From: a virus
Reading direction: 5' to 3' (one strand)
DNA: 64,000 nt
IMG/VR virus record: IMGVR_UViG_3300044617_002200
Location: 19,406 to 83,405 of that record
Below, piece after piece: positions 45,372 to 63,468 of this stretch; the first letter of the stretch is position 1; every line of letters begins with the position of its first letter. Made by a program: the position numbers and the translations under genes. Below the pieces are notes generated by a model, which was given only the letters and a program-made list of their open reading frames with translations, searched no databases and was not told where the DNA came from.

Positions 45372-46298
45372 TTACATGGGGTCTTCCATCGAAGTAGACG
45401 TCCCTGCTGCAGGGTGACCATACGCGAAGCCATTAAATTGATTGTTAGACGTTATTATCAAACTTACATCCGTAATCCTTGAAGCAGAAGGAGAGCCTGT
45501 GTTTATAAAATTTGAAAAAACAAAACCTCCGTTTGATCCAGGGTCGTATTCCAGTGCAAAAGGCGATACGGGGCTAGGTCTTTGTCTTGGGATTAAATCT
45601 CCACTTGAATTTCTGGCAAATCTGTCATGGGTGGTGATTACTTTAGTTAGACCAGACTGAGATACTACTTGTCTTATTATTTCGCATTTAGGTAAATCAG
45701 ATCCTGTAAAATTTTGACCAGTTAATTTATTTCCTGTAAGATTTTCGCAGCCCGCCATTAAAACCCGAATAGTCCACTGACCAACTCCATTTGGAACGCT
45801 AATCGTGGAAAATAATGTCGAAGAGAAACCTGGAAGTTGAGCTCCAGTTGAGCTATTACATAGCGGAGAAGGGGGCTCATGACCCATTGTTCCGGCTCTT
45901 ATAAATCGACTTGAGGAGGGCATTGTACAATTTCCCCATTTTGTAATTCCGATTGAAACTTGAGACTTGGCTTGTTCTTTTGTAAGATTAGATGGCCATG
46001 TTAATAGATCCCAATAAGCTAGAACTTTTACAGTTGAACTTCTAGGGTCTTGTATTCCCCATCCCCATGCACCCCATGCCGATTGTCTATATGCAGATAT
46101 ATTAAGATCTATACCTCCGGGAGGGGGTATTAAGGCAGGAAAGATGGGACCTGGATTTTCAACAATATCTCTAATTTCTTCTTCTGTTATTCCTCCATCA
46201 AAAAAATTTGATAAATAAGCATAATCAGTTTGTATATCTGGCTCTGAAATAGCAAGAGCCGGCAACCCTAGTTTTCTAAATTTTAGTCTTTTGCTCAT
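45372..46298 (-). CDS. Hypothetical protein, probably virion structural
   Basis: 308 aa open frame, Gly/Pro/Ser-rich. Confidence 0.55.
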   Translation of the reverse strand: MSKRLKFRKLGLPALAISEPDIQTDYAYLSNFFDGGITEEEIRDIVENPGPIFPALIPPPGGIDLNISAYRQSAWGAWGWGIQDPRSSTVKVLAYWDLLTWPSNLTKEQAKSQVSIGITKWGNCTMPSSSRFIRAGTMGHEPPSPLCNSSTGAQLPGFSSTLFSTISVPNGVGQWTIRVLMAGCENLTGNKLTGQNFTGSDLPKCEIIRQVVSQSGLTKVITTHDRFARNSSGDLIPRQRPSPVSPFALEYDPGSNGGFVFSNFINTGSPSASRITDVSLIITSNNQFNGFAYGHPAAGTSTSMEDPM

Positions 46299-46306
46299 AA
46301 GCGTGG

Positions 46307-46861
46307 TTAAAAATTAATTTTAATTATAGCGTAACCGTCATTATCGATGGTGCTTAAAAATTTACCCACAACAACCAGTCCGTCTGTGGCAAAAGACCCG
46401 TTATTGCCCATGTAAGCTGCGTCGCCAGGACTTGGAGCCCCTCCTCCTAGACCTCTATCGTTAGTATCAATTTCATTTACACATATAATACCTTTAGTTA
46501 AAATTGGCACAGCTTGAGTTGGAATTACGACATCCATTTCGGCCGCCTTGCGAGTATTATGGATTAATAAGTTTCCATTTTCATCCTCAGTTGCAACAGA
46601 TTTTAATATAATTCCTATTACATTCTCGTCGTCATAATTTTGTACTGTTTCTACTTTCCCAATAGGCGAAAAAATAGCAGAAAGAGTATTGGGAACGCCT
46701 GACATATTTTCAAGATCGAAAATATTGTTACCAGAGTTATCTTTATAATTTGAAGTAATTCTAACAATAGATCCTGCTGCAGCTGAATTACCATTATAAG
46801 AAAACAACCCGTTTATTACATCATACTCACCGTACTGTCTAAAAGGCTTTAAATTAATCAT
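46307..46861 (-). CDS. Second copy of the capsid decoration-like protein
   Basis: Shares NLKPFR, DENG..L..N.RKAAEMDV, PILTKGI, VGKFL...GYA..KI with 13007-13543. Confidence 0.75.
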   Translation of the reverse strand: MINLKPFRQYGEYDVINGLFSYNGNSAAAGSIVRITSNYKDNSGNNIFDLENMSGVPNTLSAIFSPIGKVETVQNYDDENVIGIILKSVATEDENGNLLIHNTRKAAEMDVVIPTQAVPILTKGIICVNEIDTNDRGLGGGAPSPGDAAYMGNNGSFATDGLVVVGKFLSTIDNDGYAIIKINF

Positions 46862-47144
46862 AATCAAAATATATATACACCCAAACTATTATGAATATAC
46901 ATTGCTATTTTAAATATGATAAAACTAAGATATATTAGTTCATAAGGTTTAGCGAGGTTAAATTAAATTAATAAAATAAAAATATCCTGAGATTGAAATT
47001 AGACCCTCCCGGCAACTCTTTTATAAAAGTCAAGTAAAAAATTTTCAAAAATAGGGGGGGGTTGGCATGATTCTTGCTCTAAAAAAAATACAATCGCACG
47101 AAAATAGTTGTTGTGTTTTTGGCGATCTGTGATACATTAAAACC

Positions 47145-47312
47145 ATGAACAACGAACCAACCAAAGAACAGAAAGACGAAATCGCGAAAGCTCTCATGCA
47201 ACGCGCCAGCATGGGCAAACGCTCCGGCTGGGGCTACGCAATCAAGTGGTTCGCCGCTTGGGAAAAGAATTTCTGGGAAAAAGAAAATCAAAAAAAATCC
47301 TTGCAATCCTAA
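47145..47312 (+). CDS. Small hypothetical protein (55 aa)
   Basis: MNNEPTKEQKDEIAKALMQRASMGKRSGWGYAIKWFAAWEKNFWEK...; ATG at promoter +1; below the ORF-track size cut-off. Confidence 0.65.
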   Translation: MNNEPTKEQKDEIAKALMQRASMGKRSGWGYAIKWFAAWEKNFWEKENQKKSLQS

Positions 47313-47335
47313 TCTGAATCTATAAAATAAACACC

Positions 47336-47563
47336 ATGCAAATCAAATCCACAATCGAGTTCAACGCCACCCGTTCCGTGTCTGCTAGCGGCAACACCGA
47401 ATGGTGGAAATTCACCATCACCGCGAACCGCTCGCTTTCCAAGGCGTCAGTCGAACACATCTGTCAAATCCACGGATGCTTCGGCCAGTCATTCAGCTAC
47501 AACGAAAACAAAGACAATGGCATCTTTACCTACTCTGGTGAAGCCACTTGCTACTGCGACTAA
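47336..47563 (+). CDS. Small hypothetical protein, paralog family A
   Basis: Near-identical to 48255-48482. Confidence 0.85.
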   Translation: MQIKSTIEFNATRSVSASGNTEWWKFTITANRSLSKASVEHICQIHGCFGQSFSYNENKDNGIFTYSGEATCYCD

Positions 47564-47574
47564 GGAATAAAAAT

Positions 47575-47784
47575 ATGTATTGTCCTCATAATGAACATGA
47601 TGAAGTCTTCGACAAAGTCGAAGGAGGTTGGTTCCATGTTAGCCACTATGAACTGAGCAAAAACAAATATCGCTATGTGTATGCAGGCGATACTTTTACA
47701 AGCCCCAAAACGGGTAAGAAGTGGCAATACTACCGGAAAGGAAATGAGCTTAAAGTTCGTCCTTTCAAGGAGTTAGCTAGTTAA
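47575..47784 (+). CDS. Small hypothetical protein, paralog family B
   Basis: MYCPHNEHD...GDTFTSPKTGKKWQYY; paralog of 50406-50648. Confidence 0.85.
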   Translation: MYCPHNEHDEVFDKVEGGWFHVSHYELSKNKYRYVYAGDTFTSPKTGKKWQYYRKGNELKVRPFKELAS

Positions 47785-48020
47785 ATAAAAAACTCCTCAT
47801 AAGTAACTCAAACACAATGAGTTGCGCAAGGCCGCCCCCCCGCCGGTTGCAAGTTGTTGAAAATAAAATAGTTATAATGAAAACACTAGCAGGAATCATG
47901 CCAGCCATACCGAGTATGGTTGCCATATCAAGTATGGTTGGCACGGGAGTTGCTTCAAAAAAAATGCAATCGCACGAAAAAATTTGTTGCATTCGAGACG
48001 ATCTGTGATAGATTAGAACC

Positions 48021-48215
48021 ATGAAAGACACCATAACACTCGACCACGGACACCACATCGCCATCCGCGTTGCTCTCATGCAACACATCCGCACTCAATT
48101 CGGGATTCGTCGCTTGCTCAATAATCGCGAGTCAATCACCGATGCAATCTCGGCCCTTCGTCTCGTCCGCAACTCGGACAAGCTGGAATCCACACCCTAC
48201 TCTTTCAAAAAATAA
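48021..48215 (+). CDS. Small hypothetical protein, family C
   Basis: Leaderless start; weak similarity to 49185-49382. Confidence 0.7.
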   Translation: MKDTITLDHGHHIAIRVALMQHIRTQFGIRRLLNNRESITDAISALRLVRNSDKLESTPYSFKK

Positions 48216-48254
48216 TTCTTGCAATCAATCAATCAACCCACTAATCTCTAAACA

Positions 48255-48482
48255 ATGAACATCAAATCCACAATCCAATTCGACGCCACTCGTTCCGTGT
48301 CCTCTTCGGGAAATACAGAATGGTGGAAATTCACCATCACCGCCAATCGTTCTTTGTCCAAGAACACCATCGAACACATCTGCCAGATTCATGGGTGCTT
48401 CGGTCAGTCTTTCAGCTACACCGATAGCAAAGTCGAAGGCGTGTTTACCTATTCGGGCGAAGCCACTTGCTACTGCGACTAA
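48255..48482 (+). CDS. Small hypothetical protein, paralog family A
   Basis: GNTEWWKFTITANRSLSK...GEATCYCD. Confidence 0.85.
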   Translation: MNIKSTIQFDATRSVSSSGNTEWWKFTITANRSLSKNTIEHICQIHGCFGQSFSYTDSKVEGVFTYSGEATCYCD

Positions 48483-48949
48483 TATGATCGCCACTATAAT
48501 CTTCGCATTACTAATGCTTTTACTCTTCAGATTGTTAGATTCTAACTACTAAAAACATGGATAACATCATAAAAACTATAGCCTTCTGCGTGTTTGGGTA
48601 TGCGATGGTAAGCCTCTTCTTTGAGCTTGCCGATTACATAGGCAGGCACGGGCTGTAGGTTGGCACGATTCTTGCTAGCAAAAATAACTCAAATAAGTTA
48701 CTATAAACCAATGACTTGCAGAGGGCCGCCCCCCGCGCAGTCGTAAGTCTTTGAGAATAAGTTGTTTATACTTGGCACGCTTCTTGCTGTGGTAGGTGGA
48801 AGTGTTAGCAGAAACCATGCCAACCATATCCGATATGGCAACCATACAGCGTATGGCATTACTACCTTGGCACGCTTCTTGCTTCAAAAAAATGCAATCA
48901 CACAAAAAAATTTGTTGCGTTCGCGGTGCTTCCGTGGTAGTCTATAAAC

Positions 48950-49180
48950 ATGAAAGTGAAAAACACAAAGACCACCGAACTGAAACCCTTCGTCCTCCGC
49001 GCTCAATTCGGGCTGATGCCAGTTGCCATGAAGCGGGTTTACTTGCCTTGCTACCGCAAGGCGACACGCAATCACCCGCAATGGGACGCCGCCGTTGCGG
49101 CCAGCATCTCCGCTCTTGCCGAAGACCTCGGCTTGTCAGCTTCCTTCCGTCCTGCTTTCTATCAAATCAACTCCCTCTAA
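48950..49180 (+). CDS. Small hypothetical protein
   Basis: ATG 6 nt after the TAGTCT -10 box. Confidence 0.7.
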   Translation: MKVKNTKTTELKPFVLRAQFGLMPVAMKRVYLPCYRKATRNHPQWDAAVAASISALAEDLGLSASFRPAFYQINSL

Positions 49181-49184
49181 TATA

Positions 49185-49382
49185 ATGAAATACAACCTCG
49201 ACTTCAACGAAAAAATTGCATTGCAAGTCTCTCTTATCCGTCAAGTTAGGGAGCTTAATTCTCTCCGCAATACTTGGGTTGTTAGCTCTCGCGCCAGCAT
49301 TCGCGCTGATCTTCGCCGGACAATCTCGATCCTTCGCAAAGTTCAGAAATCTGTAAATGTGCAACTCGAAACTGTTGAATAA
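49185..49382 (+). CDS. Small hypothetical protein, family C
   Basis: MKYNLDFNEKIALQVSLIRQVRE... Confidence 0.6.
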   Translation: MKYNLDFNEKIALQVSLIRQVRELNSLRNTWVVSSRASIRADLRRTISILRKVQKSVNVQLETVE

Positions 49383-49385
49383 CTT

Positions 49386-49556
49386 ATGAACATAACACAA
49401 AAAGAAAAACTGATGCGTAAACTTCATGAAAGCGCGCAATGTTTTGCAAACAAAGCACATAAAGCAGATAGAAATGGTAAAATGGTATCTTCTTTTATAA
49501 ATCTCAATCTTTATAATCTGTGCTATAATCTTAGAGACATAATCCGTTCAAAATAA
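49386..49556 (+). CDS. Small hypothetical protein, paralog family D
   Basis: MNITQKEKLMRKLHESAQCFANKAHKADRNG...FINLNLYNLCYNLRD; paralog of 51231-51386. Confidence 0.75.
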   Translation: MNITQKEKLMRKLHESAQCFANKAHKADRNGKMVSSFINLNLYNLCYNLRDIIRSK

Positions 49557-49569
49557 ACAATATAAAAAT

Positions 49570-49779
49570 ATGACAAAAATACTAAAAGCAATAGTGCCGG
49601 CAACAAAAAACCAAGGAAGTTGTTGCATTCTAGGAACTTGTAGTTTTTTTGAAACATACAAGCAAAATGTCCTGTGGCAATATAACAAGATGAGAGAACA
49701 TGATGGTTTTCCGCCTGTAATGAGGATGCCGTCTGGGACAAAATACGCATACAAACCATACTTGGGGGTAATTGTATAA
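49570..49779 (+). CDS. Small hypothetical protein
   Basis: 69 aa ORF (LWQYNKMREHDG). Confidence 0.55.
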   Translation: MTKILKAIVPATKNQGSCCILGTCSFFETYKQNVLWQYNKMREHDGFPPVMRMPSGTKYAYKPYLGVIV

Positions 49780-50063
49780 TGATTTTTGTAATTGCTTCTA
49801 TCGTAGGTGTTTACCTAATGAGTAAATGAACATAAACCCCTCTACAACAACAACTTGCAGAGGGCCGCCCCCCGCGCGATTACAAGTCATTAAAAATAAA
49901 CAACTTATAAAAAATCTGATAGCAGGATTCATGCCAGAGTTGTTGCCATACTAAGTATGTATTGCCATACTCGATATGGTTGGCACGAAAACTGCTTCAA
50001 AAAAAATGCAGCCGGATAAAAATAATTGTTGTGTTTCCGATCATCCCGTGATACCTTTTAACC

Positions 50064-50363
50064 ATGAACAACACGAACACCGAAGCCAGCAACGAAATCC
50101 TCGACTCCGAAATCTCCGCTCTCGCCGCTCATGCACCACAAGAGCAACCTTTCCCCAATGACGACGATTATAGCGACGATTCCTATGGGGTCACTCGCGA
50201 CGACGACACAACTGATGGCGACGATTGTTCGGAGTTCGACGGGGAACCCGAACCACGCGAAGATCACTTCCGCGACGATGTGGACGCTGACGCCGACACT
50301 CTCGCGAGTGCTGGCTACGGCACGGACGAGGACTACGGATACTTCGGGGGCGAAGATTACTAA
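50064..50363 (+). CDS. Highly acidic small protein
   Basis: 99 aa, D/E-rich, ends ASAGYGTDEDYGYFGGEDY; leaderless start. Confidence 0.75.
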   Translation: MNNTNTEASNEILDSEISALAAHAPQEQPFPNDDDYSDDSYGVTRDDDTTDGDDCSEFDGEPEPREDHFRDDVDADADTLASAGYGTDEDYGYFGGEDY

Positions 50364-50405
50364 TCAACTAACTCACTCAACATCAACCAATAACTAATAA
50401 AATAT

Positions 50406-50648
50406 ATGTATTCACCTCATACTGAACACGATCAAGTTTGGGACAAATGGAACAACGAATGGGCGTATGTCAGCCACTTCGAGCTTGAGAAACGCCAAAA
50501 TCGTTTCCGCTTTGTTTACCACGGCGACACTTTCACAAGTTCCAAGACTGGAAAGGTTTGGCAATACTACAAGAAGGGCGACGAACTTGGAGTCCGTCCT
50601 TACAAACCCGCCTCTTCAACCCCTTCTCTTGCAACTACTAATGCTTAA
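50406..50648 (+). CDS. Small hypothetical protein, paralog family B
   Basis: MYSPHTEHD...GDTFTSSKTGKVWQYY. Confidence 0.85.
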   Translation: MYSPHTEHDQVWDKWNNEWAYVSHFELEKRQNRFRFVYHGDTFTSSKTGKVWQYYKKGDELGVRPYKPASSTPSLATTNA

Positions 50649-51029
50649 TAATATGAAAACAAAACTAATCCATCTACTGTTTGGATCTCCCGAAATTGTT
50701 GGCACGCTTCTTGCTTGCAACATTGCATGGTTCACGCAATCAACTTGGCTGCAACGGCTTGAGCGCAATGGCGAACTCTACAGATACCTTATGAAGTAAA
50801 TCTTTAATATTCAATAACTTACGCAAGCGCGCCCCCCCGTCAGTTGCAAGTCATTGAAAACAAAACACTTGACCATCCAAATTGCTAGCAGGATTCATGC
50901 CAAGAATCAAGCCATACGCTATATGGCAAGCCATACTTGGTATGGTTGGCACACTTTTTGCTTCAAAAAAAATTCAACCGCATGAAAATAATCGTTGCTT
51001 TTCTGTGAGTCCCGTGATACCTTTACAGC

Positions 51030-51185
51030 ATGAAAGTTGAAATGATTGAACGCTACGCTGAAGCCTTCCGCAAGTTTGAAGCGGGTGAAATCACCCTCCA
51101 GCAATGGACTGATCTTTGTCTTTTGGTTCTTGAGGAAATTATGAACGAGCACAAGGAAATGTTTGTTCGGTTGAAAAACCGCTAA
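51030..51185 (+). CDS. Small hypothetical protein (51 aa)
   Basis: MKVEMIERYAEAFRKFEAGEITLQQWTDLC...; leaderless start. Confidence 0.7.
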   Translation: MKVEMIERYAEAFRKFEAGEITLQQWTDLCLLVLEEIMNEHKEMFVRLKNR

Positions 51186-51230
51186 AATTCTCTGGACACA
51201 TAACAAAAAACCAATTAAATTCTAACCACC

Positions 51231-51386
51231 ATGAAAAACAAACTGCTCCTCGCCCTTCATCAAAACGCTCAACGCTTCATCAACCGCTCTCATCTCGCTG
51301 ATCGCCGTGGGAACCAAGTCTGCGCGTTTATCAACTTTCACCTCTACAATCTTTGCTACAATCTCCGCAATGCAATCCGCAACTAA
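51231..51386 (+). CDS. Small hypothetical protein, paralog family D
   Basis: MKNKLLLALHQNAQRFINRSHLADRRG...FINFHLYNLCYNLRN. Confidence 0.75.
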   Translation: MKNKLLLALHQNAQRFINRSHLADRRGNQVCAFINFHLYNLCYNLRNAIRN

Positions 51387-51393
51387 TAAAAAA

Positions 51394-51573
51394 ATGAAAA
51401 TATCTTTTGCACATCTTTTGACGGCTCTTTTTATCGGATTAAAACTCACGGGATACATCAACTGGTCGTGGGTTTGGGTTCTGTCTCCCATCTGGATCAC
51501 ATTGTTGTTTGCGCTTACTTTTATCGCCATAGGTGCGACGCTTGGCGTAATCATAAAAAAAAGGGAAAAATAG
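51394..51573 (+). CDS. Small phage membrane protein
   Basis: LFIGLKLTGYINWSWVWVLSPIWI motif, common in phage membrane proteins. Confidence 0.75.
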   Translation: MKISFAHLLTALFIGLKLTGYINWSWVWVLSPIWITLLFALTFIAIGATLGVIIKKREK

Positions 51574-51617
51574 TTCTTTACCCCCACTCTTAAAATTAGT
51601 AAAATAAAACTCACACC

Positions 51618-52112
51618 ATGAAGCTAACCACCAAAACCAAAGACCCGTTGAACTACATCGAAGCAAACTTGATCCTTCACAAGATCGGCAATCAGCTTCC
51701 ATACTTTTCCCTCACGGGGCGCATTGTTAAGCACGGACACGAGACTACAAGCGGAGCAATCCACAAAGAAATTCTTGAGGCATTCCCGCAACTCGAAGAT
51801 GCCGCCGCACTTCACCTTTCCGATATGAACGGCAAACCGATGCACTCTTTCGAGAATGGAAAGTATTGGGCTGGGTTTACAAAGTTGAACGAATGCAGTA
51901 GCAAAAACCTTGCAAGCCTTTGGAGAATTAGTCAAAATCGTGCGGCGGGTCTTACTCGTGACGCGCTCATGGCTCAACTCTGGCAGGATGGCGACAGCGA
52001 CACTTTGCCGGAAACTCTTCTCAAAGACTTTCACGATAGACAGTTGCGCCGTTGGAAGCAGGAAGCTGATAATGTCATCAAGAAGTATAATCTGGAAATT
52101 GTTCTTTCTTAA
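51618..52112 (+). CDS. Hypothetical protein
   Basis: 164 aa; PYFSLTG...SGAIHKEIL..FP.L...LHLSD.NG.PMH..ENG.YW; own promoter. Confidence 0.75.
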   Translation: MKLTTKTKDPLNYIEANLILHKIGNQLPYFSLTGRIVKHGHETTSGAIHKEILEAFPQLEDAAALHLSDMNGKPMHSFENGKYWAGFTKLNECSSKNLASLWRISQNRAAGLTRDALMAQLWQDGDSDTLPETLLKDFHDRQLRRWKQEADNVIKKYNLEIVLS

Positions 52113-52165
52113 TGAGTTCAATCGTCTATCAAATTATAGTAAGCAAAAAACAAAAACAAAACACC

Positions 52166-52429
52166 ATGAAAAAACTAATACAAAACATCAAACGCAAGGT
52201 CATTCTTATCTCATTCTGTATCAATTTGATGCTATGCTTTGCTTCATGTGCATACTTTAGCGCGGCAGAAACTAAAATGCGAGAAGTTCGTGATATTCAA
52301 CGAGATGCAAAAGAAGTTCTTGACACGCCTGATCTTACTGGTTGGAGCATTGATGAATTAGAGGATGCTGTCAATAAAGACATTAAAACTTTAGAAAAGG
52401 CGTATAAACAGAGAGGGGGAAAAATATGA
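52166..52429 (+). CDS. Hypothetical membrane-anchored protein
   Basis: MKKLIQ... with one TM segment. Confidence 0.55.
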   Translation: MKKLIQNIKRKVILISFCINLMLCFASCAYFSAAETKMREVRDIQRDAKEVLDTPDLTGWSIDELEDAVNKDIKTLEKAYKQRGGKI

Positions 52430-52726
52430 ATACTCGCTAACGCAAAGCTCTCGTAATCAATGGGTTGCGAGAGCGCGCCCCCCCCGCCCGACGCAACTCA
52501 TTGAAATACAATAACTTATGCAAAAGTTAAAGTTTTGAAATTAAAAAACTTATATCGCAAACCGCTTTCGTTCAATTATTTGCGGCTTTCAAGATTCTTA
52601 TTTGTCTATTTAGTATTTTACTATTTCACTATTTGTCGCTCGATTGGCACGGAACTTGCTTGCAAAAAAATAATTTTTTTGTAAAAAAACTTGTCCTCAC
52701 GAAAAAAAATGAGATAATAAAAAACG

Positions 52727-53401
52727 ATGAAACTCCTATCTGCTAACAACACCAAAATCAAAAAAGGCGAGAAACTTGGATGGCGCACTCTCGGGTTGTC
52801 GCTTGCTCCTGCTAATCTGTCCGGCAAACAACTTTGCCCTCATCGCTCTGCTGGCTGTGAAGCGGCTTGCCTCAATACTTCTGGAATGGGGGCTTTCTCG
52901 AATGTTCAAGAGGCACGAATTAAAAAAGCAAAACTGCTGATTGAAAACCGCGCTGTTTTTCTTGCTCAACTCGAAAAAGAGCTTGTCAATCTAAACAAAC
53001 GCGCTGGCAAAGGAAATCAAACCGCCGTGCGTCTTAATGTGCTTTCCGATCTTCCTTGGCATAATTTGATTGACATGGAAAAATTTCCAAACCTCAAATT
53101 TTATGATTACACGCCAAACCCTGCGCGAATGATTCAATTCCTGCGCGGGGAACTTCCTGCAAATTATCACTTGACATTTTCTCGCAAGGAAAGCAATCAA
53201 GCGCAAGTTCAACTAATCTCCAGCATGGGCGGCAATGTAGCCGTTGTTTTTGACAATCTCCCGGAAACCTATCTCGGCAAGCCTGTTATAGATGGAGATG
53301 AAACCGATTTGCGTTTTCTTGACCCTAAAAATGTAGTAATTGGCTTAAAAGCAAAGGGTAAAGCCAAAAAAGATTATTCTGGATTTGTTGTCAAAATCTG
53401 A
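52727..53401 (+). CDS. GP88-like Cys-cluster protein (radical-SAM-related)
   Basis: CPHRSAGCEAACL, VRLNVLSD, FYDYT, NYHLTFS, GDETDLRFLD, GLKAKG. Confidence 0.7.
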   Translation: MKLLSANNTKIKKGEKLGWRTLGLSLAPANLSGKQLCPHRSAGCEAACLNTSGMGAFSNVQEARIKKAKLLIENRAVFLAQLEKELVNLNKRAGKGNQTAVRLNVLSDLPWHNLIDMEKFPNLKFYDYTPNPARMIQFLRGELPANYHLTFSRKESNQAQVQLISSMGGNVAVVFDNLPETYLGKPVIDGDETDLRFLDPKNVVIGLKAKGKAKKDYSGFVVKI

Positions 53402-53765
53402 TACGATATGGCATGGAAACATGGATAACGCTTTTATGTATAGCATTGGTTTTCTTTGCTTTAATCAAATCAAAAAAATAATGCGATAAGAAAAAAATAG
53501 TTGGCACGATTCTTGCTTGTGTCTCGCGTTTAAGTAAACCACTAAACGCCAACGACTTGCGGCGGGCCGCCTCCCGCGCAAAAGCAAGTTCTTGAAAGAG
53601 AATGACTTATGTAAAATGCATTAGCAAGAACCATGCCAAGATTCAAACCATATCTAGTATGGCAAGCCATATTGAGTATGGTTGGCACGATACCTGCTAT
53701 AAAAAAAATTCAAAAATAAAAAAATAATTGTTGCGCTTCAACAAGGGCTGTGATAAATTTTAATC

Positions 53766-53957
53766 ATGCTGAACACAATGACTATTGAACTCGATGATTT
53801 CATCACTCATTCTCATTCAGACGAATTTTCTTCCGAATGGGAGGAACAACAAAAAATTCTGAAAGCCTGTGCCTATGAGGCATGGCTTGACGAACAAGAA
53901 AGAAAATACTGGGAAAATCTTTCGCTAAAAAGTGAAGGTTTCTCTTGCACACACTAA
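53766..53957 (+). CDS. Small acidic hypothetical protein
   Basis: Leaderless start after TAAATT. Confidence 0.65.
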   Translation: MLNTMTIELDDFITHSHSDEFSSEWEEQQKILKACAYEAWLDEQERKYWENLSLKSEGFSCTH

Positions 53958-53981
53958 AACAAAACACTAATATCACCACTT

Positions 53982-54527
53982 ATGAAAAAAGCCAACATCA
54001 TCATCAGCACATACGGAAACGGAATCGCGGTCGGACTCCAAGGAACTAAGGATCAGATCGAACAATCTTTCAACCGCTTTTTTAATTGGGGCGCGGCGGC
54101 TCCAAATATAACATTCATGCGCTCAAACGAGGATTGCGAAACCAATATCGGTGACATGGGCGATTCTTACTTGCATGAAATTTTCGATGGTTTTTGCTAC
54201 TTCCTTTCTACTGAACAAGATATGATCAAAGCTCTTGCAAGTGAATATCTTTTTAACTGGCAAGATACTTCTATATCAAAACAATACAAAGGCGTTCGCA
54301 ATAACAAAAAAATTGCTGGATTAAAATTCCGAGAAGATGCCCAAAATGCTGCTCGCGAAGAGTTTAACAGCTACACTAAAGAAAACTTTATGCTTTACAA
54401 TAAATCAGAGTCACCCCTTTTCAAAGTCTCTGATGGAGGCGCGCCTTCATATGACTCATCATCAATGACTTTTGGAGAAGTCGCAAGAACTTATGGATAC
54501 AAAAGCCGATTAGCTCCAGCAGTATAA
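53982..54527 (+). CDS. Hypothetical protein
   Basis: 181 aa ORF. Confidence 0.7.
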   Translation: MKKANIIISTYGNGIAVGLQGTKDQIEQSFNRFFNWGAAAPNITFMRSNEDCETNIGDMGDSYLHEIFDGFCYFLSTEQDMIKALASEYLFNWQDTSISKQYKGVRNNKKIAGLKFREDAQNAAREEFNSYTKENFMLYNKSESPLFKVSDGGAPSYDSSSMTFGEVARTYGYKSRLAPAV

Positions 54528-54898
54528 GCTGGCACGATAATTGCTAGGCTGGCGAGTGCGTAGCGCGGACCAGCCTGGCACGCTTTTTGCTTACAGTTTT
54601 TAAAGCAAATGATTGAATATCAATGACTTGCAAAAGTTGGGCCACCCCCGCGCACGCAACTCTTTGAAAGCAAACAAGTTATGACTTGAAATCACAAAAT
54701 GTGATTTTCACAATACTTTGGCGTTCATCTTGTTATACAACTGGTCGAAATTTGCGACCAGTTATACAAAACACATATTTGCTTATTATTAGATTCTTAT
54801 TTGGTCACGAATACGTTCCTATTTGATTTTAAATCTTTTAGCAATTCTAAAAACAATTGACATTTTATAAAAATTAATTTATATTAAACATATATTTG

Positions 54899-54973
54899 GG
54901 GTTGGTAGCTCAATGGTAGAGCAGTGCCCTTTTAAGGCATTGGTTCTGGGTTCGAGTCCCAGTCAACCCACCA
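54899..54973 (+). tRNA. tRNA-Lys(TTT)
   Basis: Cloverleaf; loop CTTTTAA; GGTTCGAGTCC; encoded CCA. Confidence 0.92.
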
Positions 54974-55066
54974 TAGCAAGATTCATGCCAATTTTTTTTT
55001 CATAAAAATTATTTTTTGAAAAAATCTATTGACTCGATATTCAAGATAGACTACTATGAGGTTGTC

Positions 55067-55315
55067 ATGAAAAACATCATCAATCAAATCAAACTCGCAG
55101 TTGCTGATTCCAAACTTGGTTCATTTATGAATCCCGTGTATGATCTGAAATACTGCCGAGAAGACGGAGTGGTCAAGAATTATTCTACCTCTCGTCCCTT
55201 TGACAAATTTAACGATGGTTTCGTAGCTTATTCTTTCGGAAACGGCATTCGACGCTTTCGTTTTGATCGAATCCTTGACCGCAGGGTGAGAACCTTGTTT
55301 GCAAAAAATGCTTGA
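55067..55315 (+). CDS. WYL-like small protein
   Basis: KY..EDG...VAYSF..GIRRFRFDRI motif; TTGACT-17-TACTAT promoter. Confidence 0.55.
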   Translation: MKNIINQIKLAVADSKLGSFMNPVYDLKYCREDGVVKNYSTSRPFDKFNDGFVAYSFGNGIRRFRFDRILDRRVRTLFAKNA

Positions 55316-55349
55316 CCTCGATTGAAAATTTGTGTAAAAAATAGTTTGT

Positions 55350-55486
55350 AGGAGCGGGTTGGTTCCCGATGAACCAATAGGCAGGTGTGTCACTTGCGAA
55401 ACAAAATCGGAAACCTTAAGTCTCTACCAAAGGTAGGAACTCCATAGAGGTTTGACCGCTGAACCAGCAATGCAAATCAGCGGTAA
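55350..55486 (+). ncRNA. Putative structured ncRNA
   Basis: Multiple hairpins (ttggttc/gaaccaa, gcaggtg/cacttgc, ctacc/ggtag, aaacct/aggttt, accgctga/tcagcggt) downstream of a TTGACC promoter. Confidence 0.45.
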
Positions 55487-55591
55487 TGATCTTTGAAAAT
55501 TTTAATATATGGTCGTCGGCTGAAGTGCAAGCGTCTGATTGGATCACCAGAGGGCACAATAATGCCGAGTTAACACGGCCACCTTTTAGTA

Positions 55592-55663
55592 TGCGATTTA
55601 GCTCAAATAGTAGAGTCCTGCATAGTAGGCAGGAGGCTATCGGTGCAATTCCGATAATCGCAG
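55592..55663 (+). tRNA. Atypical tRNA, apparent anticodon AGT (Thr)
   Basis: TGCGATT/AATCGCA acceptor stem, cctgc-ATAGTAG-gcagg, T-loop GTGCAAT. Confidence 0.55.
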
Positions 55664-55668
55664 AAAAG

Positions 55669-55742
55669 TAACTCGTGGTGTAACCGCAAGCATCCTGCGC
55701 ATGAACGCGGGGGTGAGGGTTAAAGTCCCTCCGAGTTATCCA
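55669..55742 (+). tRNA. tRNA-like RNA with non-canonical anticodon loop
   Basis: TAACTCG/CGAGTTA acceptor stem plus T-CCA; T arm gaggg-TTAAAGT-ccctc; loop CATGAA (6 nt) or 8 nt. Confidence 0.55.
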
Positions 55743-56010
55743 ATTTTAGCTTGCTAGGGGACAAGAGGCTCCATGCCTCGTCCTGTAAGTGCGTAGCGCG
55801 ACAAAGGCTTACCCTAGCGTGGCTAGTTTTTTTGGTAAATAGAGTAGTAATACCTATTCCGGTGCCTCGAAAGCGGGGCGGTGCTTAATAAGGTGTTTCG
55901 AGAATATACACAGCCGCCTACCATTCATTTTCATAGAAACTAAAAAATAGTTAAAAGAATACTTGATGTATAGTGTAATTTATAGGTATCGCAATTTGCG
56001 ATACCAAAAC

Positions 56011-56086
56011 TGCGATGGGCTAGGCCAGGTGGTCTGATGTGTCTCATAAGCACATAAACTGGGTTCGAGTCCCAGCGTCGCTACCA
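56011..56086 (+). tRNA. tRNA-Met/Ile2 (CAT)
   Basis: Loop CTCATAA, GGTTCGAGTCC, CCA; 1:72 mismatch. Confidence 0.8.
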
Positions 56087-56169
56087 ATTTGGGGTAAACA
56101 TTAAACCGAGCCGCGACCCAAATACAGGGTGTTTATTCCAGAAGCGTCGCGGGTAAACGCTTCTACTTT

Positions 56170-56241
56170 TGAAGTATAGCTCAATGGTAGAGCGGGGCGC
56201 TGTTAACGCCTAGGTTGTAGGTTCGAGTCCTACTACTTCAG
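56170..56241 (+). tRNA. tRNA-Asn(GTT)
   Basis: Cloverleaf, loop CTGTTAA. Confidence 0.9.
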
Positions 56242-56250
56242 TATTTATAT

Positions 56251-56323
56251 GTGGCTCGTGGTGTAGCGGCTAGCATTACTCACTGTGACTGAGTCGGGAC
56301 GGGTTCAAATCCCGTCGAGCCAA
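56251..56323 (+). tRNA. tRNA-His(GTG)
   Basis: actca-CTGTGAC-tgagt, GGTTCAAATCC, G at -1. Confidence 0.85.
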
Positions 56324-56326
56324 TAC

Positions 56327-56400
56327 GCGGAATTAGTTTAATGGTAGAACTGGACTCTTCCAAAGTCAGGACGAGGGTTCGATTCCCTCATTCCGCACCA
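56327..56400 (+). tRNA. tRNA-Gly(TCC)
   Basis: GCGGAAT/ATTCCGC acceptor stem, loop CTTCCAA, CCA. Confidence 0.9.
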
Positions 56401-56401
56401 T

Positions 56402-56474
56402 ACCGAGATAGCATAATTGGTAGTGCAACAGAATTTGGATCTGTCGGTTGATCGTTCGAGTCGATCTCTCGGTG
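56402..56474 (+). tRNA. tRNA-Gln(TTG)
   Basis: acaga-ATTTGGA-tctgt, GTTCGAG T-loop. Confidence 0.8.
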
Positions 56475-56486
56475 CTTTTAATTTTT

Positions 56487-56585
56487 GCCGGTGTAGCTCA
56501 GCGGTAGAGCAGCAACCCACTCATGGTGAAGGACCTAATGCCGTGGGATAAAAGCAAGCCGTTGGTTCGAATCCAACCACTGGTT
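56487..56585 (+). ncRNA. tRNA-like RNA with expanded anticodon domain
   Basis: Canonical acceptor stem, D arm (TAGCTCAGCGGTAGAGC) and T arm (GGTTCGAATCC), but about 25 extra nt in the anticodon region. Confidence 0.7.
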
Positions 56586-56866
56586 CTCTGTAAATCTTTA
56601 TTAATAAGAGAGATGCGAATGCAAGCCTGCCCGCCGCGCGCAAGTCTTTGAAAGAGAAGATCTTATCAAAATGGCTTGACAAAAAAATAAAAATTAATTA
56701 AAATTCGGCATGAAGATTAAAACTTTTTATCTTATTATTAGCACCCCGAAGGTTCAGAAAACCATGCCCAAGCCTTGTCGTCCTATTTCAAAAAAAGGTT
56801 ACTCTCGAAAAATAAAACACAAAAATCTTCTTGCATTGGACTAAAAAATCAGCTATCTTAATAAAG

Positions 56867-57556
56867 ATGATCACCACTAACATCACCACGGAAAATATCG
56901 TTGCACCATTTATTCTCGCTCCAGTCGAGAGTTTTTTTGCGTCTATCACCGATTCTGAACGCACTTTTCAAACAGACTACTGGAAGGAAGTTTCTCCAGA
57001 AAATGATTCCGAATGTTTTCGGAGATTTTTGTTTGCGTATTGTAGCGTTCATACTACTTGGGAATCGAATATCAAAGCATACAATCTTATCAAGAATTGG
57101 TGGGAGTGGATCAATCAATGGGATGAATTAGAGAACCGCATCAAACAAAGCGGGGCGGGTCTTTATAGAAATCGTGTTCGTTTCATCAAAGATTTTTGTG
57201 CCAAGTTTTGGGCGAACCCTTGCTTTTATACCAAGCAGACAGAAAACGAATCTTGGACTGATTTTCGCAATCGCATTGAGAAAGCAATTCTCGGTCTTGG
57301 TATGGCAAAATCCAGCTTTGCAATCGAAATGATGTATCCTACAATCGGTCAAGTTTTTTGTGCCGATACTCATATGTTTCAACTCTATGGTTGTAATCAA
57401 ACCAAAGATTCTAAAAAATACCAAGACATCGAGAAACATTGGGTTCGTATGTCTTTCGAGTATGAAATCTCTCCATACATTGCTCGTTGCATTTTCTGGG
57501 ACAGAAAACAAAAGCAAGAAAATTCTCGCTACTGGTCGTATGTTTTGGAAAAATAA
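56867..57556 (+). CDS. HhH-type DNA glycosylase-like protein
   Basis: ILGLGMAKSSF HhH-like motif and CADTHM; GAGLYRNRVRFI. Confidence 0.55.
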   Translation: MITTNITTENIVAPFILAPVESFFASITDSERTFQTDYWKEVSPENDSECFRRFLFAYCSVHTTWESNIKAYNLIKNWWEWINQWDELENRIKQSGAGLYRNRVRFIKDFCAKFWANPCFYTKQTENESWTDFRNRIEKAILGLGMAKSSFAIEMMYPTIGQVFCADTHMFQLYGCNQTKDSKKYQDIEKHWVRMSFEYEISPYIARCIFWDRKQKQENSRYWSYVLEK

Positions 57557-57594
57557 TCCTTGAATTTAAAATCAAAAAAATATATTCTTTCAAT

Positions 57595-57789
57595 ATGATC
57601 ATCACACGCAAATCACCATTCAGCGGTAAAATTAACAAGATGGATATCAATGTCACAGCGGGTCAAATTGTCCGTTGGGAAATGGGAGAGTTGATTCAAA
57701 ATGCCATGCCGAATTTAACCCCATCAGAACGCGAGTTCATTAAAACTGGGATAACTGATGAAGAATGGCAAGCAGCTTGTGGTGAATAA
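57595..57789 (+). CDS. Small conserved-looking phage protein
   Basis: MIITRKSPFSGK...LIQNAMPNLTPSEREFIKTGIT..EW. Confidence 0.7.
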   Translation: MIITRKSPFSGKINKMDINVTAGQIVRWEMGELIQNAMPNLTPSEREFIKTGITDEEWQAACGE

Positions 57790-58201
57790 TATAAACAAAC
57801 AAAACAAACAAACAAAAAACATATGAAAATAATCGAAGGCGCAATCTATAAATATAATGATGAACTCGTCCGCTTGCGTAAGCGAGTCGGAATCATGGCT
57901 GTCTTGTCTCGTCGCAAGAAAGCAGGGTTTATTGGTGTTACTAGCAAGCTTGAAAAGGTCAATAAGAAACAGGTAGCTAAATTTCTAGGACACACATGAA
58001 ATAAATACTTGAAACTCAAGGCCTTGCGAAAGGCCGCCCCCCCCGCGCGCCGCAAGTCCTTATAAATAAAGGGTTTATAAAATAACCTCTAGCAAGAATC
58101 ATGCCAACTTCTGAAGTCGAAAAATACGGCTTCAAACTTTAATAAAAAAAATCAAAAAAAAATCTTGCCGTGCGTTCAAATCATAGTATGATGAAATCTC
58201 A

Positions 58202-58993
58202 ATGAAAGCACTAAACCTAACACTACATTGCGGCGGCCACTCCGTCGAATCCACCGAAGTTCAACAGGTCGCCACTCCTATGGCTACCGACTCATGGCAT
58301 CCGATTCCTCACTTTTCGCTCATCGAGCGTCTTCGTGAGATTGTTTCTGACGCTGGAATGACAATCACGCAAGAAGCTCATGCCCTTGCTCGTAATGGAC
58401 TCCGCTATTTTGGGCTTTTCCAAGTGGCGGGAATCCCTAACTTCTCTCAAGAAGACAACATTGGAACTGTAATCGGGCTTCGCAATTCCCATGACAAGTC
58501 TTTTCCAGCCGGAATCAACGCGGGGTCTGCTCCGTTCGTTTGTGATAATCTTGCGTTCCATAACGAAATCAAGATTGCTCGTCGTCACACCAAGTTCATC
58601 ATGCGCGATTTACCGACGCTTTTAGCAGGAGCATTTGGTAAGCTGACTACAACTTGGGGCAACAATGCGGCACGAATCGAAGCCTATCAATCGCGTCAGC
58701 TTAATAACCCAGAAGCTCACGATATTCTTGCTAGAGCATATCGTTGCGGTGCAGTAAGTAAGACTCATCTTGCGGATGTGCTTGACCAATGGCATAATCC
58801 AGAACATGAGGAATGGAAACCAGAGCGTAATCTGTGGGGTCTGCATAATGCCTTCACTAATGTCATGCGTGGCAATGTGTTAGCACTACCAAAGCGTAGC
58901 GATGCCCTACATGGTCTGCTCGACCCGCTGGCGGGAGTAAAGTTCGCCAGAGCAGAAGAAGTTGGCGATGAGGCACTTGCCCTCCCTGCTTAA
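58202..58993 (+). CDS. DUF932-family protein
   Basis: PIPH, GLRNSHDKS, FVCDNLAF, RRHT, LWGLHNAFT. Confidence 0.75.
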   Translation: MKALNLTLHCGGHSVESTEVQQVATPMATDSWHPIPHFSLIERLREIVSDAGMTITQEAHALARNGLRYFGLFQVAGIPNFSQEDNIGTVIGLRNSHDKSFPAGINAGSAPFVCDNLAFHNEIKIARRHTKFIMRDLPTLLAGAFGKLTTTWGNNAARIEAYQSRQLNNPEAHDILARAYRCGAVSKTHLADVLDQWHNPEHEEWKPERNLWGLHNAFTNVMRGNVLALPKRSDALHGLLDPLAGVKFARAEEVGDEALALPA

Positions 58994-59008
58994 CCTATAA
59001 GCAATTAA

Positions 59009-59043
59009 GTTTAAGGCTCCAAATCGGAGCCTTAAATTTTTTT
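59009..59043 (+). terminator. Rho-independent terminator
   Basis: tttaaggctcc-aaatc-ggagccttaaa followed by a T-run. Confidence 0.8.
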
Positions 59044-59190
59044 GCGACTAGGTTCTTTTACAAGTCATTTAACAGTAATGAGTTGCGTGCGAGCGCCCCC
59101 CGGCCCGCCGCAAGTCTTTGCTAATCAAGGCGTTATAGCTGATTTTTTTTATTTGACACCGAGTAGAAATAACAATACTTTTATTTCGAT

Positions 59191-59535
59191 ATGTCACCAC
59201 AAGAAATCCAATCAATCGCAGACTTGACCGCTAAATTTTTAGGCTTGACAATTAGACCAAAAGCTATAATCAAAGAAACCAGCAGGGGCTATGCTTGGAC
59301 TGATAAAGGTTGGTTTACAATGCCACAATGGGCGATTGATCATAGCGAAGAATGTGCGATGTATATAATCATCCATGAAATTTGTCATTTTTTGAATGGA
59401 GGGTTAGATCATGGCACGGAATTTGCTTCCGTAGAAGATCGCGCTCTTGAATTTTGGAATTTGAAAATAGAAAGAACAAAAAAAAATGTATATGCAAAGA
59501 AAATAATTTCCAAACGAGGGGTTTTTTCTATTTGA
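59191..59535 (+). CDS. SprT/M48-like HEXXH metalloprotease
   Basis: YIIIHEICH...HGTEF. Confidence 0.7.
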   Translation: MSPQEIQSIADLTAKFLGLTIRPKAIIKETSRGYAWTDKGWFTMPQWAIDHSEECAMYIIIHEICHFLNGGLDHGTEFASVEDRALEFWNLKIERTKKNVYAKKIISKRGVFSI

Positions 59536-59569
59536 CTTCTACCAAAAATAAAATTAAATTTATATTCCT

Positions 59570-59752
59570 ATGCCAAAACTAAAATCCTACAAAATTATTA
59601 GCGATACTGACGGAAACGATTTTTTCAAAGTTTCTGCAAGAGACGAGTGCGATGCCGCGATGGAGGGCTTGGAGCAACTTGGATGGTTTGTTTCTGAATC
59701 TAACTCCGAAGACGAAGAAGAAGACGAAAACCAATATCAATTTAATTTCTAA
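59570..59752 (+). CDS. Small acidic hypothetical protein
   Basis: 60 aa with own TTGACT promoter. Confidence 0.6.
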   Translation: MPKLKSYKIISDTDGNDFFKVSARDECDAAMEGLEQLGWFVSESNSEDEEEDENQYQFNF

Positions 59753-59795
59753 AAAAACATTGACTCAATCATAAAAAAATACTATTCTAAAAAAG

Positions 59796-60611
59796 ATGAA
59801 AACACTAACTGCCTTTATCAAAACCGACGACTCACTTACCATCGTTATCGACAACACCCCGAAAACGATGTCTGTTAATCACCCCTCTTTCGACGATGCA
59901 ATCTCTGCTCTTGAGAATGGCGACATCGACTTGCTCGACTCTCTTTTCGATGTGAAAAACAAAATCCAAAAAGAGTTTGTTTCTACAAGTTCCCGATTTG
60001 GTGGGGTTGAAATTTGTGATGATGGAACAATCCTCTATAATGGAGAAGTTATCCATAATTACATTGTTGACAAAATCTTCGAGTTCATGGATTGCCGACT
60101 GCCTTTCCAACCTCTTGTCAACTTCTTGGAGAAACTGATGGAGAACCCTTCTAAACGCGCAGTTGATGAACTTTACAAGTTCTTGGAACACAAGCATCTT
60201 CCTATCTGCGAAGATGGTGATTTCCTTGCCTACAAGAGTGTTCGCGAAGATTATATGGATCACCACTCTGGAAAGTTCAGTAATCATGTGGGGTCAGTTC
60301 TTGCGATGCCTCGCAATGCAGTCTGCGACGATGCTGATGTTGGTTGCTCTTATGGTTTCCATGCTGGTAGCTATGAATACGCTTCGACATTCGGCGGAAG
60401 TGGTTCTCGCCTTGTGATTGTCAAGATCAATCCTGCTGATGTTGTTAGTGTTCCGCGTGATTGTAATTGTCAGAAACTCCGCACTTCTCGATATGAAGTT
60501 ATGAAGGATTTCGAGGAAATCTACAATAAGCCTCTGAATACAGAGTTTAAGTCGAAAAACTCTCATAATCAACGAGATAGTAAGGGCAGGTTTGTTGCGA
60601 AAGCAAAATAG
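59796..60611 (+). CDS. rIIB-like protein
   Basis: NPSKRAVDELYKFL, DGDFLAYKSV, MPRNAV.DD....CSYGFHAG, VKINPADVVSVP.D....KLRT.RYEV. Confidence 0.85.
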   Translation: MKTLTAFIKTDDSLTIVIDNTPKTMSVNHPSFDDAISALENGDIDLLDSLFDVKNKIQKEFVSTSSRFGGVEICDDGTILYNGEVIHNYIVDKIFEFMDCRLPFQPLVNFLEKLMENPSKRAVDELYKFLEHKHLPICEDGDFLAYKSVREDYMDHHSGKFSNHVGSVLAMPRNAVCDDADVGCSYGFHAGSYEYASTFGGSGSRLVIVKINPADVVSVPRDCNCQKLRTSRYEVMKDFEEIYNKPLNTEFKSKNSHNQRDSKGRFVAKAK

Positions 60612-60657
60612 TTTCAATACCGAGTAAGTATTGAAAGTTGGTTAGTGGTGGGTCAGC

Positions 60658-60697
60658 GGCGGCAAGACTTGTGGTGGGTCTTGCCGCCTTTTTTTTG
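60658..60697 (+). terminator. Rho-independent terminator
   Basis: ggcggcaagac...gtcttgccgcc followed by T8. Confidence 0.85.
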
Positions 60698-60900
60698 TGC
60701 CACAGCTTTTGTTGTAAATTACTCCAAGTCAAAGAGTTGCGGCTGCCGCCCCCCCCGCGCTGTGCAAGTTGTTGATAATCATGCTTTTATACTAAAACCT
60801 GTAAGCAAGAATCGTGCCATAAAAAAATAAATAAAAATTAAAAAAAAATGCTTGCGCGGTGTTCAAATTATAGTAATATGAGATTTCACCAATACCACAC

Positions 60901-63165: not shown

Positions 63166-63193
63166 TCGTGGAGTGTTAGTCATGGTGAAGACT

Positions 63194-63222
63194 GGGGGCG
63201 GGAAACCGCCCCCTTTCTTTTT
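63194..63222 (+). terminator. Rho-independent terminator
   Basis: ggggcgg-gaaa-ccgcccc hairpin followed by a T-rich tail. Confidence 0.85.
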
Positions 63223-63392
63223 GCCTTGGGGAAGACTGACGCAAAGTCCTCAATATAAAAGAGTTGCGACTGGCCGGGGGGGCGCGGCTCCGCAACTCAT
63301 TGGTATTCAATGCTTTATACAAACTTTAAAACAGTGATCTAGAAAAGGGTTGACATCGGCTTCAGGATGTATTATTATAGGTTGTATTATAA

Positions 63393-63468
63393 GTCTCCAT
63401 AGTGTAATCGGTTAGCACAGCACCCTTTCACGGTGTTAGTAGGGGTTCGAATCCCCTTGGGGATGCCA
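63393..63468 (+). tRNA. tRNA-Glu(TTC)
   Basis: Cloverleaf, loop CTTTCAC, CCA; TTGACA-17-TATTAT promoter upstream. Confidence 0.9.

Follow-up and report, generated by a model that had tools for sequence, protein, structure and literature searches.

The DNA described here is a window of 64,000 nucleotides, i.e. bases 19406 to 83405 of the 83,405-bp IMG/VR viral contig IMGVR_UViG_3300044617_002200, which is estimated to be about 55% complete. The subject is a set of short boxes in its early region that resemble the -24/-12 element of the bacterial sigma factor sigma-54 (RpoN), together with the repeated units that carry them. In the phage under study (labelled G000, its relatives being G001 to G010), the late arm occupies the left 47 kb of the window on the minus strand and includes the large terminase subunit (TerL) and a cement protein. 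From 47 kb rightward, a plus-strand early block contains small and mostly orphan genes, a tRNA cluster, and rIIA; its GC content of 0.39-0.45 is higher than that of the late arm, which is about 0.30. Fifteen of the twenty early proteins scanned have no Pfam match; four weak matches below the curated cut-offs (RmuC, Ogg-HhH, HhH-GPD, and YgjP-like) fall in three proteins, and no DNA-binding domain was found among the twenty.

Sigma-54-type boxes and the cassettes that carry them

The pattern TGGCAYR-N4-YTGCT has 22 sites in the window, 14 on the plus strand and 8 on the minus strand. All of them lie at 47063-60819 and none was found elsewhere on the contig. Dinucleotide shuffles gave a mean of 0.07 sites and a maximum of 1, so that 22 was reached in 0/100, and the pattern read backwards, used as a control, had no match on the contig (0/0). 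Scored against TGGCACG-N4-TTGCW, eleven boxes match at 12/12 positions, seven at 11/12, and four at 10/12, and no site outside this block exceeds 9/12. An earlier note on this DNA had counted about 21 sites in 14 kb, with none noticed in the late arm, and both statements agree with these results. It had also called the sites intergenic, which is correct for about 20 of the 22; the exceptions are the box at 59412, inside a YgjP-like gene, and that at 50700, in a doubtful 48-codon open reading frame (ORF).

The sigma-54 consensus is given as TGGCAC-N5-7-TTGCT in a passage of PMC12316311. The conserved GG at -24/-25 and GC at -12/-13, with the TGGCAC and TTGC elements 4 nt apart, are present in 22/22 sites. 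Information is near maximal at TGGCA-Y-G and at TTGCT, and low in the 4-nt spacer and the flanks. Since the spacer and flanks have diverged while the consensus positions are kept, it is the motif itself that appears to be conserved, and not merely the surrounding repeat. In sites that deviate at no more than two positions, the changes concentrate at -21 (C to T), -20 (G to A), -15, and -11, and spare -26 to -22 and -14 to -12. The 74 such sites of the G000 family (chance expectation 9.6) show this pattern, and so do the 127 in 19 unrelated multi-box loci (chance expectation 14.7). Positions -21, -20, -15, and -11 are those where sigma-54 promoters are known to be degenerate. Judging from the motif, its spacing, and its tolerated changes, the boxes are very probably sigma-54 sites.

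Seven forward boxes (class P) stand 82-83 nt before the first ATG of a module. These are 47063-47078 (score 11/12; 82 nt before the ATG at 47145), 47939-47954 (12/12; 82 nt, ATG 48021), 48868-48883 (82 nt, ATG 48950), 49981-49996 (83 nt, ATG 50064), 50947-50962 (83 nt, ATG 51030), 52645-52660 (82 nt, ATG 52727, of a GP88-family gene), and 53683-53698 (83 nt, ATG 53766). Directly left of the first one, at the point where the late (minus) and early (plus) arms diverge, is a run of eight G residues (47055-47062, plus strand), and G006 likewise has eight G residues in a row close to its first box. The interval from a class-P box to its ATG holds an A-tract and a sigma70-type promoter, which is read from the sequence as TTG(-35)-N19-TAnnTT(-10) with an upstream TG. 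At 47955-48020 (plus strand; repeat family D6), for example, the A-tract is followed by TTGCAT-N16-TGnTAGATT, 6 nt, and the ATG. The earlier note had placed the forward boxes about 30 bp upstream of such a promoter and regarded them as redundant; this description fits 7/14 forward boxes and fails for the other seven.

The -10 element ends exactly 6 nt before the ATG in 6/7 class-P cases. The promoter ends 6-7 nt before the ATGs at 47145, 48021, 48950, 50064, 51030, and 53766, and the same is seen at 47336 and 48255. This geometry suggests that the early mRNAs may be leaderless. Shine-Dalgarno sequences are rare in both arms (2/28 late genes and 1/26 early genes, plus one excluded gene with GAGG).

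The second component of the cassette is a dyad with a poly-C core and arms resembling binding sites of the integration host factor (IHF). It has 11 copies at 47815-60788, all taken on the plus strand, whereas the promoter has 5-7 copies. Ten dyads belong to repeat family D1 (47815-47873, 48709-48767, 49848-49906, 50812-50870, 52458-52516, 53550-53608, 56606-56664, 58017-58075, 59076-59134, and 60730-60788), and the eleventh is at 54622-54682, of which family D3 holds 54641-54682. Six of the eight reverse boxes (class R, minus strand) lie 14-16 nt right of a dyad: 47888-47903, 49921-49936, and 53623-53638 at 14 nt, 58091-58106 and 60804-60819 at 15 nt, and 50887-50902 at 16 nt. The box at 58091 is upstream of the promoter of a DUF932 gene, and that at 60804 is upstream of the rIIA promoter. 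A seventh, 48807-48822, is displaced to 39 nt from its dyad by an extra forward box (48773-48788) that starts 5 nt right of the dyad and faces it, with 18 bp between the two. The eighth, 54975-54990, starts 2 nt after the 3' end of tRNA-Lys and aims into the tRNA. The dyad at 52458 is followed by no reverse box, and the one at 56606, after the tRNA cluster, has no box. As the earlier note had stated, these eight boxes point antisense with nothing to transcribe, since the ORF list contains no credible minus-strand gene downstream of them.

Five further forward boxes (class A) lie upstream of a dyad, and all five aim into this non-coding element. Three of them are 30-32 nt from the repeat register (48661-48676 and 53502-53517 at 32 nt, 54576-54591 at 30 nt) and two are 76-96 nt away (54530-54545 at 76 nt, 50700-50715 at 96 nt). 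The convergent pairs 50700/50887 and 53502/53623 that had been pointed out across the dyad are real, and 48661/48807 is another. Five reverse/forward box pairs enclose two palindromes each, of the GCCATA-N5-TATGGC type, at 47904-47938 (here CCATAY-N3-5-RTATGG, between divergent boxes), 48823-48867, 50903-50946, and 53639-53682 (all family D16), and at 49937-49980 (family D11). The complete boundary cassette therefore reads dyad, reverse box, two palindromes, forward box, sigma70-type promoter, and ATG.

Overall, a promoter orientation fits the seven class-P boxes, and it does not fit the eight reverse boxes, the five class-A boxes, 48773, or 59412. From this arrangement, most of the boxes are very probably not ordinary promoters. 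The box at 59412-59427 (plus strand) is a perfect one inside a conserved gene for a YgjP-like protein of 114 residues, where it is spelled by the codons of HGTEFA. The orthologs in G002 and G003 have HGKLFC and a poorer match, which indicates that two amino-acid changes completed the box in G000.

Among the relatives, the dyad was noted at loci L092, L093, and L095; in G002, G003, and G008 it spans about 75 bp without gaps. Four IHF-like arms in alternating orientation surround a GC-rich core with a polar C run. The arm motif TCAA-N4-TTR has 52 matches at four fixed positions in 24 dyads of these three genomes, compared with 0.31 in shuffles, and the full IHF-like 13-mer occurs 22 times; the arms thereby match the core of the IHF consensus, WATCAANNNNTTR. 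By eye, the N4 of the arms varies and does not pair between arms, and the arms are therefore taken as protein sites and not as RNA stems, i.e. as candidate sites of an IHF-type protein. The dyad resembles the IHF-binding repeat elements of bacteria (BIME, bacterial interspersed mosaic elements; RIP, repetitive IHF-binding palindromic elements). An RNA hairpin or small RNA was also considered and dropped, given the unpaired N4 and single folds of similar energy on both strands. The dyad is not simply the terminator either, since the copy at 59076 follows a hairpin-plus-T-run terminator, the copy at 60730 follows a strong intrinsic terminator (60658-60688), and several copies in G003 also follow ordinary terminators. 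At the module ends in 47-54.6 kb, no convincing plus-strand intrinsic terminator was found. In G006, the dyad core is instead a perfect palindrome, CGGGGCCC-N-GGGCCCG.

Family history and recurrence in other viruses

A scan with TerL confirmed 171/179 candidate stretches as relatives. Among the best 80 of these 171, which were kept, 60 are 80-87% identical, and some come from genome-length contigs. Strict boxes are few in most of the family: one in the complete genome G002 (178 kb), none in the complete genome G003 (166 kb), 0 or 1 in G001, G004, G005, G007, G009, and G010, and two in G008. G006 has seven strict boxes within 5 kb and shares with G000 the 82-83 nt from box to ATG. G003 has ten dyads and the same early promoter with the same 6-nt gap to the ATG. 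Two loci related by tblastx, L175 and L131, contain 15 and 5 boxes, and four of those in L175 are in tandem, 26-28 nt apart.

When the -12 position is relaxed, all five genomes compared have a reverse TGGCAYG-N4-NTG box past the last dyad arm, at a distance of 12-13 nt (8 in G000, 4 in G003, 5 in G002, 3 in G006, and 6 in G008). The search pattern fixed position -13 as G, which all 26 of these boxes therefore have. At position -12, 20 boxes carry C and six carry A, the latter all in G002 and G003. The GC is kept in all 22 boxes of G000, in 3/3 reverse boxes of G006, and in 6/6 of G008. Since every family member examined has the dyad-adjacent reverse box, one such box is taken as ancestral. The dyad, one reverse box, and the promoter are common to the relatives, and box multiplication is confined to the G000 lineage, with the forward boxes and palindromes as additions in the lineage of G000 and G006.

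Mini-genes in different modules of G000 are paralogous. The pair 47336-47563 and 48255-48482 is 81% identical over 231 nt, and the pair 47575-47784 and 50406-50648 is 72% identical over 98 nt. Their orthologs stand in another module order in G006, which was the only match in a protein scan of IMG/VR with the mini-genes. In G006 (L094, about 6840-7060, minus strand), one forward box with its sigma70 promoter stands ahead of a leader of some 130 nt, in which several GC-rich hairpins precede the ATG; this leader could be a structured RNA or riboswitch-like.

Clustering of the boxes is not limited to this family. IMG/VR loci were seeded with TTGGCACG-N4-TTGCTT or with the backwards pattern, and the counts that follow are among the matches listed (at least 114 and at least 117, respectively). 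Two or more relaxed boxes were present in 39 of the 114 seeded loci, three or more in 21, and four or more in 15; among the 117 control loci, three had two boxes and none had more. The 21 loci with at least three boxes form 15 tblastx clusters with a GC content of 0.31-0.65. Fourteen of these clusters are without G000, and within the fetched loci they share no detectable gene with the G000 cluster or with each other. The recurrence in unrelated clusters, with the same tolerated changes, points to a conserved host factor as the binder rather than a phage protein.

Compact arrays of 5-9 boxes, about 23-55 nt apart, were seen on unrelated contigs (L143, 5936-6146; L129, 8236-8447; L164, 2913-3106; L183, 4811-4929). 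The boxes of L143 and L129 mostly alternate in strand, and a G-rich run follows in three of the four arrays. Promoter-like hexamers lie just downstream of the L143 array and, less clearly, of the L129 array. G or C runs of at least 6 were found near 17/111 boxes of other phages compared with 4% of random positions, a weak association. One unrelated phage box array compared by blastn with 50,697 phage records gave 1% coverage or nothing. Literature searches, with supplementary site lists outside their scope, found no paper on arrays of sigma-54 sites in phages and only one related passage, on Pseudomonas phage YuA.

No gene with a Sigma54_DBD domain was found in G000, G002, G003, G006, or G008. 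The earlier note had suggested a search for a GAFTGA-containing activator; the 83-kb contig has neither a match to Sigma54_activat (PF00158) nor a GAFTGA-like string in its six frames. The only PF00158 match over the cut-off in G002 and G003 is a RuvB-like protein. It is an AAA+ protein of 312 residues with a winged-helix C-terminus, encoded about 7 kb beyond rIIA (G003, L096, 919-1857; G002, L097), and the part of G000 that matches this locus lies past the contig end. On the host side, a TerL scan of GTDB genomes found one contig of a metagenome-assembled genome (MAG) with a 56% identical TerL, i.e. a distant relative. This AT-rich MAG, labelled uncultured Pseudomonadales, has a Sigma54_DBD gene (rpoN), and the binning gives a weak hint to the host.

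Possible roles of the boxes

The motif, spacing, and tolerated positions of the G000 boxes are those of bacterial -24/-12 promoters such as glnAp2, pspA, and nifH, and IHF-like sites and paired palindromes are also nearby. The tandem arrangement with a sigma70 promoter resembles glnAp1/p2. Unlike these promoters, however, the boxes number 22 in 14 kb on both strands and are nearly all perfect or close to it; for many there is nothing to transcribe, IHF-like sites are found on the transcribed side, and no activator gene is visible. The favoured reading, held tentatively and at somewhat less than even confidence, is that the boxes are high-affinity docking sites that would hold host sigma-54 polymerase inactive and thereby act as a sponge or competitor. 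The host sigma-54 RNA polymerase holoenzyme, or sigma-54 itself, would bind the 22 boxes built into the repeated cassette that separates the early gene modules, and the holoenzyme would sit there as a stable closed complex, as its start needs an ATP-driven activator. Since no activator is visible in the contig, most sites most likely hold the enzyme rather than make RNA. The array could draw scarce sigma-54 away from the host regulon and be a competitor of sigma70 polymerase near the early promoters. Its oldest element is the reverse box at a fixed 12-16 bp from an IHF-like dyad arm, which probably acts with whatever protein bends the dyad, and the seven class-P boxes could also fire as activator-gated second promoters.

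From the motif, its statistics and positions, the family history, and the recurrence, we infer that sigma-54 is the binder, that it would form closed complexes, and that these may have a sponge effect. Such docking is suggested by perfect sites on either strand, many of which lack anything to transcribe, by the multiplication within one lineage, by the box created in a gene, and by the lack of a visible activator; the compact arrays in relatives and unrelated phages are also consistent with the decoy that the earlier note had put forward. For E. coli, Bonocora et al. 2015 (PMC4591121) state that sigma-54 holoenzyme binds promoters in an inactive state, document inactive binding and sigma competition at intergenic sites, and propose decoy roles. 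The 135 sites mapped there are mostly intragenic and scattered over the 4.6-Mb chromosome, and the holoenzyme is bound without transcription at sites not tied to gene starts (PMC4591121). The G000 boxes differ from them in being packed in viral intergenic cassettes and amplified in one lineage.

Several points weigh against docking. The geometry is fixed, with 82-83 nt between box and ATG and a distance of 12-13 nt to the dyad arm that is kept in five genomes with early proteins of only about 56% identity; a function tied to position would explain this better than a free sponge. Of the strict boxes in G006, 6/7 are oriented like the genes, as expected of promoters. In G002 and G003, 6/9 reverse boxes have GA instead of GC and so depart from the sigma-54 consensus. 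Core polymerase, which the phage itself needs, would be sequestered by a sponge as well, and the missing 45% or so of the genome could encode an activator or a binder of the phage's own.

It is possible, but rather doubtful, that the boxes are genuine enhancer-dependent sigma-54 promoters. The class-P boxes would then be second promoters in tandem with sigma70, transcripts from the class-A boxes would cross the dyad and enter the next module, and short antisense RNAs from the reverse boxes would begin at the edge of the dyad. A host protein, or a phage protein that went unrecognised, would serve as activator and bind the GCCATA-N5-TATGGC palindromes or the GC core of the dyad, with the IHF-like arms bending the DNA. 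The exact -24/-12 spacing and consensus, the constant distance to the ATG from G000 to G006, and the direction of 14/22 boxes in G000 and of most boxes in G006 speak for promoters, as do the usual companions (IHF-like sites and paired palindromes) and the predicted +1 of the class-R boxes, which is the first base of the dyad arm in five genomes. There is also a precedent, since one of the two promoters identified in the lytic phage YuA was assigned to a sigma54-like region read by host sigma-54 polymerase (Ceyssens et al. 2008, cited in PMC10914365); the cited passage describes no two-strand array or cassette. On the other hand, in addition to the lack of a visible activator gene, the IHF-like sites lie downstream of the class-A and class-R boxes and not between enhancer and promoter, and convergent, face-to-face, and tRNA-directed boxes make no sense as promoters. 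The palindromes at -30 to -65 are closer than enhancers usually stand. The complete relatives run the same modules without forward boxes, and the -12 C is missing in the GA-type reverse boxes of G002 and G003. These GA variants also lend some weight to another binder, i.e. a phage-encoded protein or a host DNA-binding protein other than sigma-54, whose target would be TTGGCAYG with a TG downstream and would resemble the sigma-54 motif by partial convergence. This is unlikely. It would account for TGGCACG-N4-(C/A/T)TGA in those boxes, whose invariant part is TGGCAYG...TG, for the TGGCA/TGCCA-like half-sites inside the neighbouring palindromes, and for an early region full of orphan proteins. 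However, it leaves unexplained the GC kept throughout G000, G006, and G008, and a lineage-specific protein explains poorly why the 12-position motif and its tolerated changes recur in 14 further clusters.

Closed sigma-54 complexes might also insulate the early modules from one another as roadblocks against read-through, as the earlier note had proposed, and the boxes do stand at module boundaries, often convergent around a dyad, in a region (47-54.6 kb) that is poor in terminators at module ends. This seems improbable: ordinary terminators already precede the dyads at 59076 and 60730 and several of those in G003, and in E. coli only 3/85 genes that had sigma-54 polymerase bound within them were down-regulated, which is not above chance, so that the authors of PMC4591121 regard repression by roadblock as effectively ruled out. 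The boxes could conceivably also be handles for polymerase-assisted DNA entry, another idea of the earlier note. The least probable explanation, by a clear distance from even odds, is that the boxes have no function of their own, either as hitch-hikers in a duplicated mobile cassette or with TTGGCA as the -35 of a weak sigma70 promoter. The boxes do belong to repeat families, shuffling of early ORFs by cassettes is said to be known in T4-type phages, and a consensus scan reads seven forward boxes as TTGGCA-N16-AAAAAT. Hitch-hiking, however, agrees poorly with flanks and a 4-nt spacer that diverged among copies when the 12 consensus positions did not, with the box that arose inside a gene through amino-acid changes, and with clustering in unrelated phages that the control motif does not show. 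A -35 role leaves the TTGCT half unexplained, and the reverse and class-A boxes have no A-tract.

The carrier of the boxes has a possible counterpart in the promoter-early stem-loop (PeSL) cassettes of T4-type phages, in which a repeated early promoter and stem-loop reportedly flank small orphan early genes. The G000 cassette is similar in its repeated promoter-plus-dyad unit, its variable small ORFs, and a module order that differs from G006, and in these respects fits a PeSL-like, putatively mobile cassette. It differs in carrying sigma-54 boxes, IHF-like arms, and a poly-C core, and in promoters that end 6 nt before the ATG. The G000 set is a dispersed, cassette-borne one, built up from one ancestral box and linked to IHF-like dyads.

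The sigma-54 regulon includes flagella and pili that serve as receptors, the Psp and Rtc stress and repair responses, and nitrogen control, and no other bacterial sigma factor is known to leave polymerase parked inactive on DNA as sigma-54 does. A virus that multiplied perfect parking sites would exploit this property. As a wider and speculative proposal, which we hold with some reserve, many unrelated phage lineages may carry DNA sponges of perfect sites that capture the small host pool of sigma-54, or its holoenzyme, at DNA entry and shut off its regulon; in G000 the sponge would have grown from one older architectural site, a sigma-54 complex clamped beside an IHF-bent dyad at each early-module boundary. 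If so, it would be an anti-host strategy by cis-acting DNA and not by a protein. Sites that trap sigma-54 would amount to a new kind of host takeover by non-coding DNA, with bearing on the silencing of host responses and receptors. If the boxes fire instead, the early programme of the phage would be wired to host enhancer-binding proteins and hence to nitrogen status or stress.

Neighbouring features

No close cultured phage was found, since blastn of 7.9 kb of the region and of one cassette against the 50,697 phage records gave at most 1% coverage, and tblastn with TerL and rIIA gave distant matches only (<32% identity). A search with a DUF6734 protein matched only itself and one relative at 77%. 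Among the sequencing runs listed as containing the stretch, none is an RNA run; it is present nearly whole, at 0.80-0.98 of its words, in three metagenome runs of lake or freshwater samples, each from a different study, and two of these runs may be its source.

Rfam found only tRNAs at 46000-64000. Within the tRNA cluster, about 600 bp between early genes (55300-55900) have no long ORF and look structured; they contain one tRNA-Thr call, which is all that Rfam finds there. A 99-nt tRNA called by Rfam at 56487-56585 is absent from the ARAGORN calls and may carry an insertion or intron. In the late arm, a motif like GTGTAATAT often stands 10-25 nt before the start of the genes.

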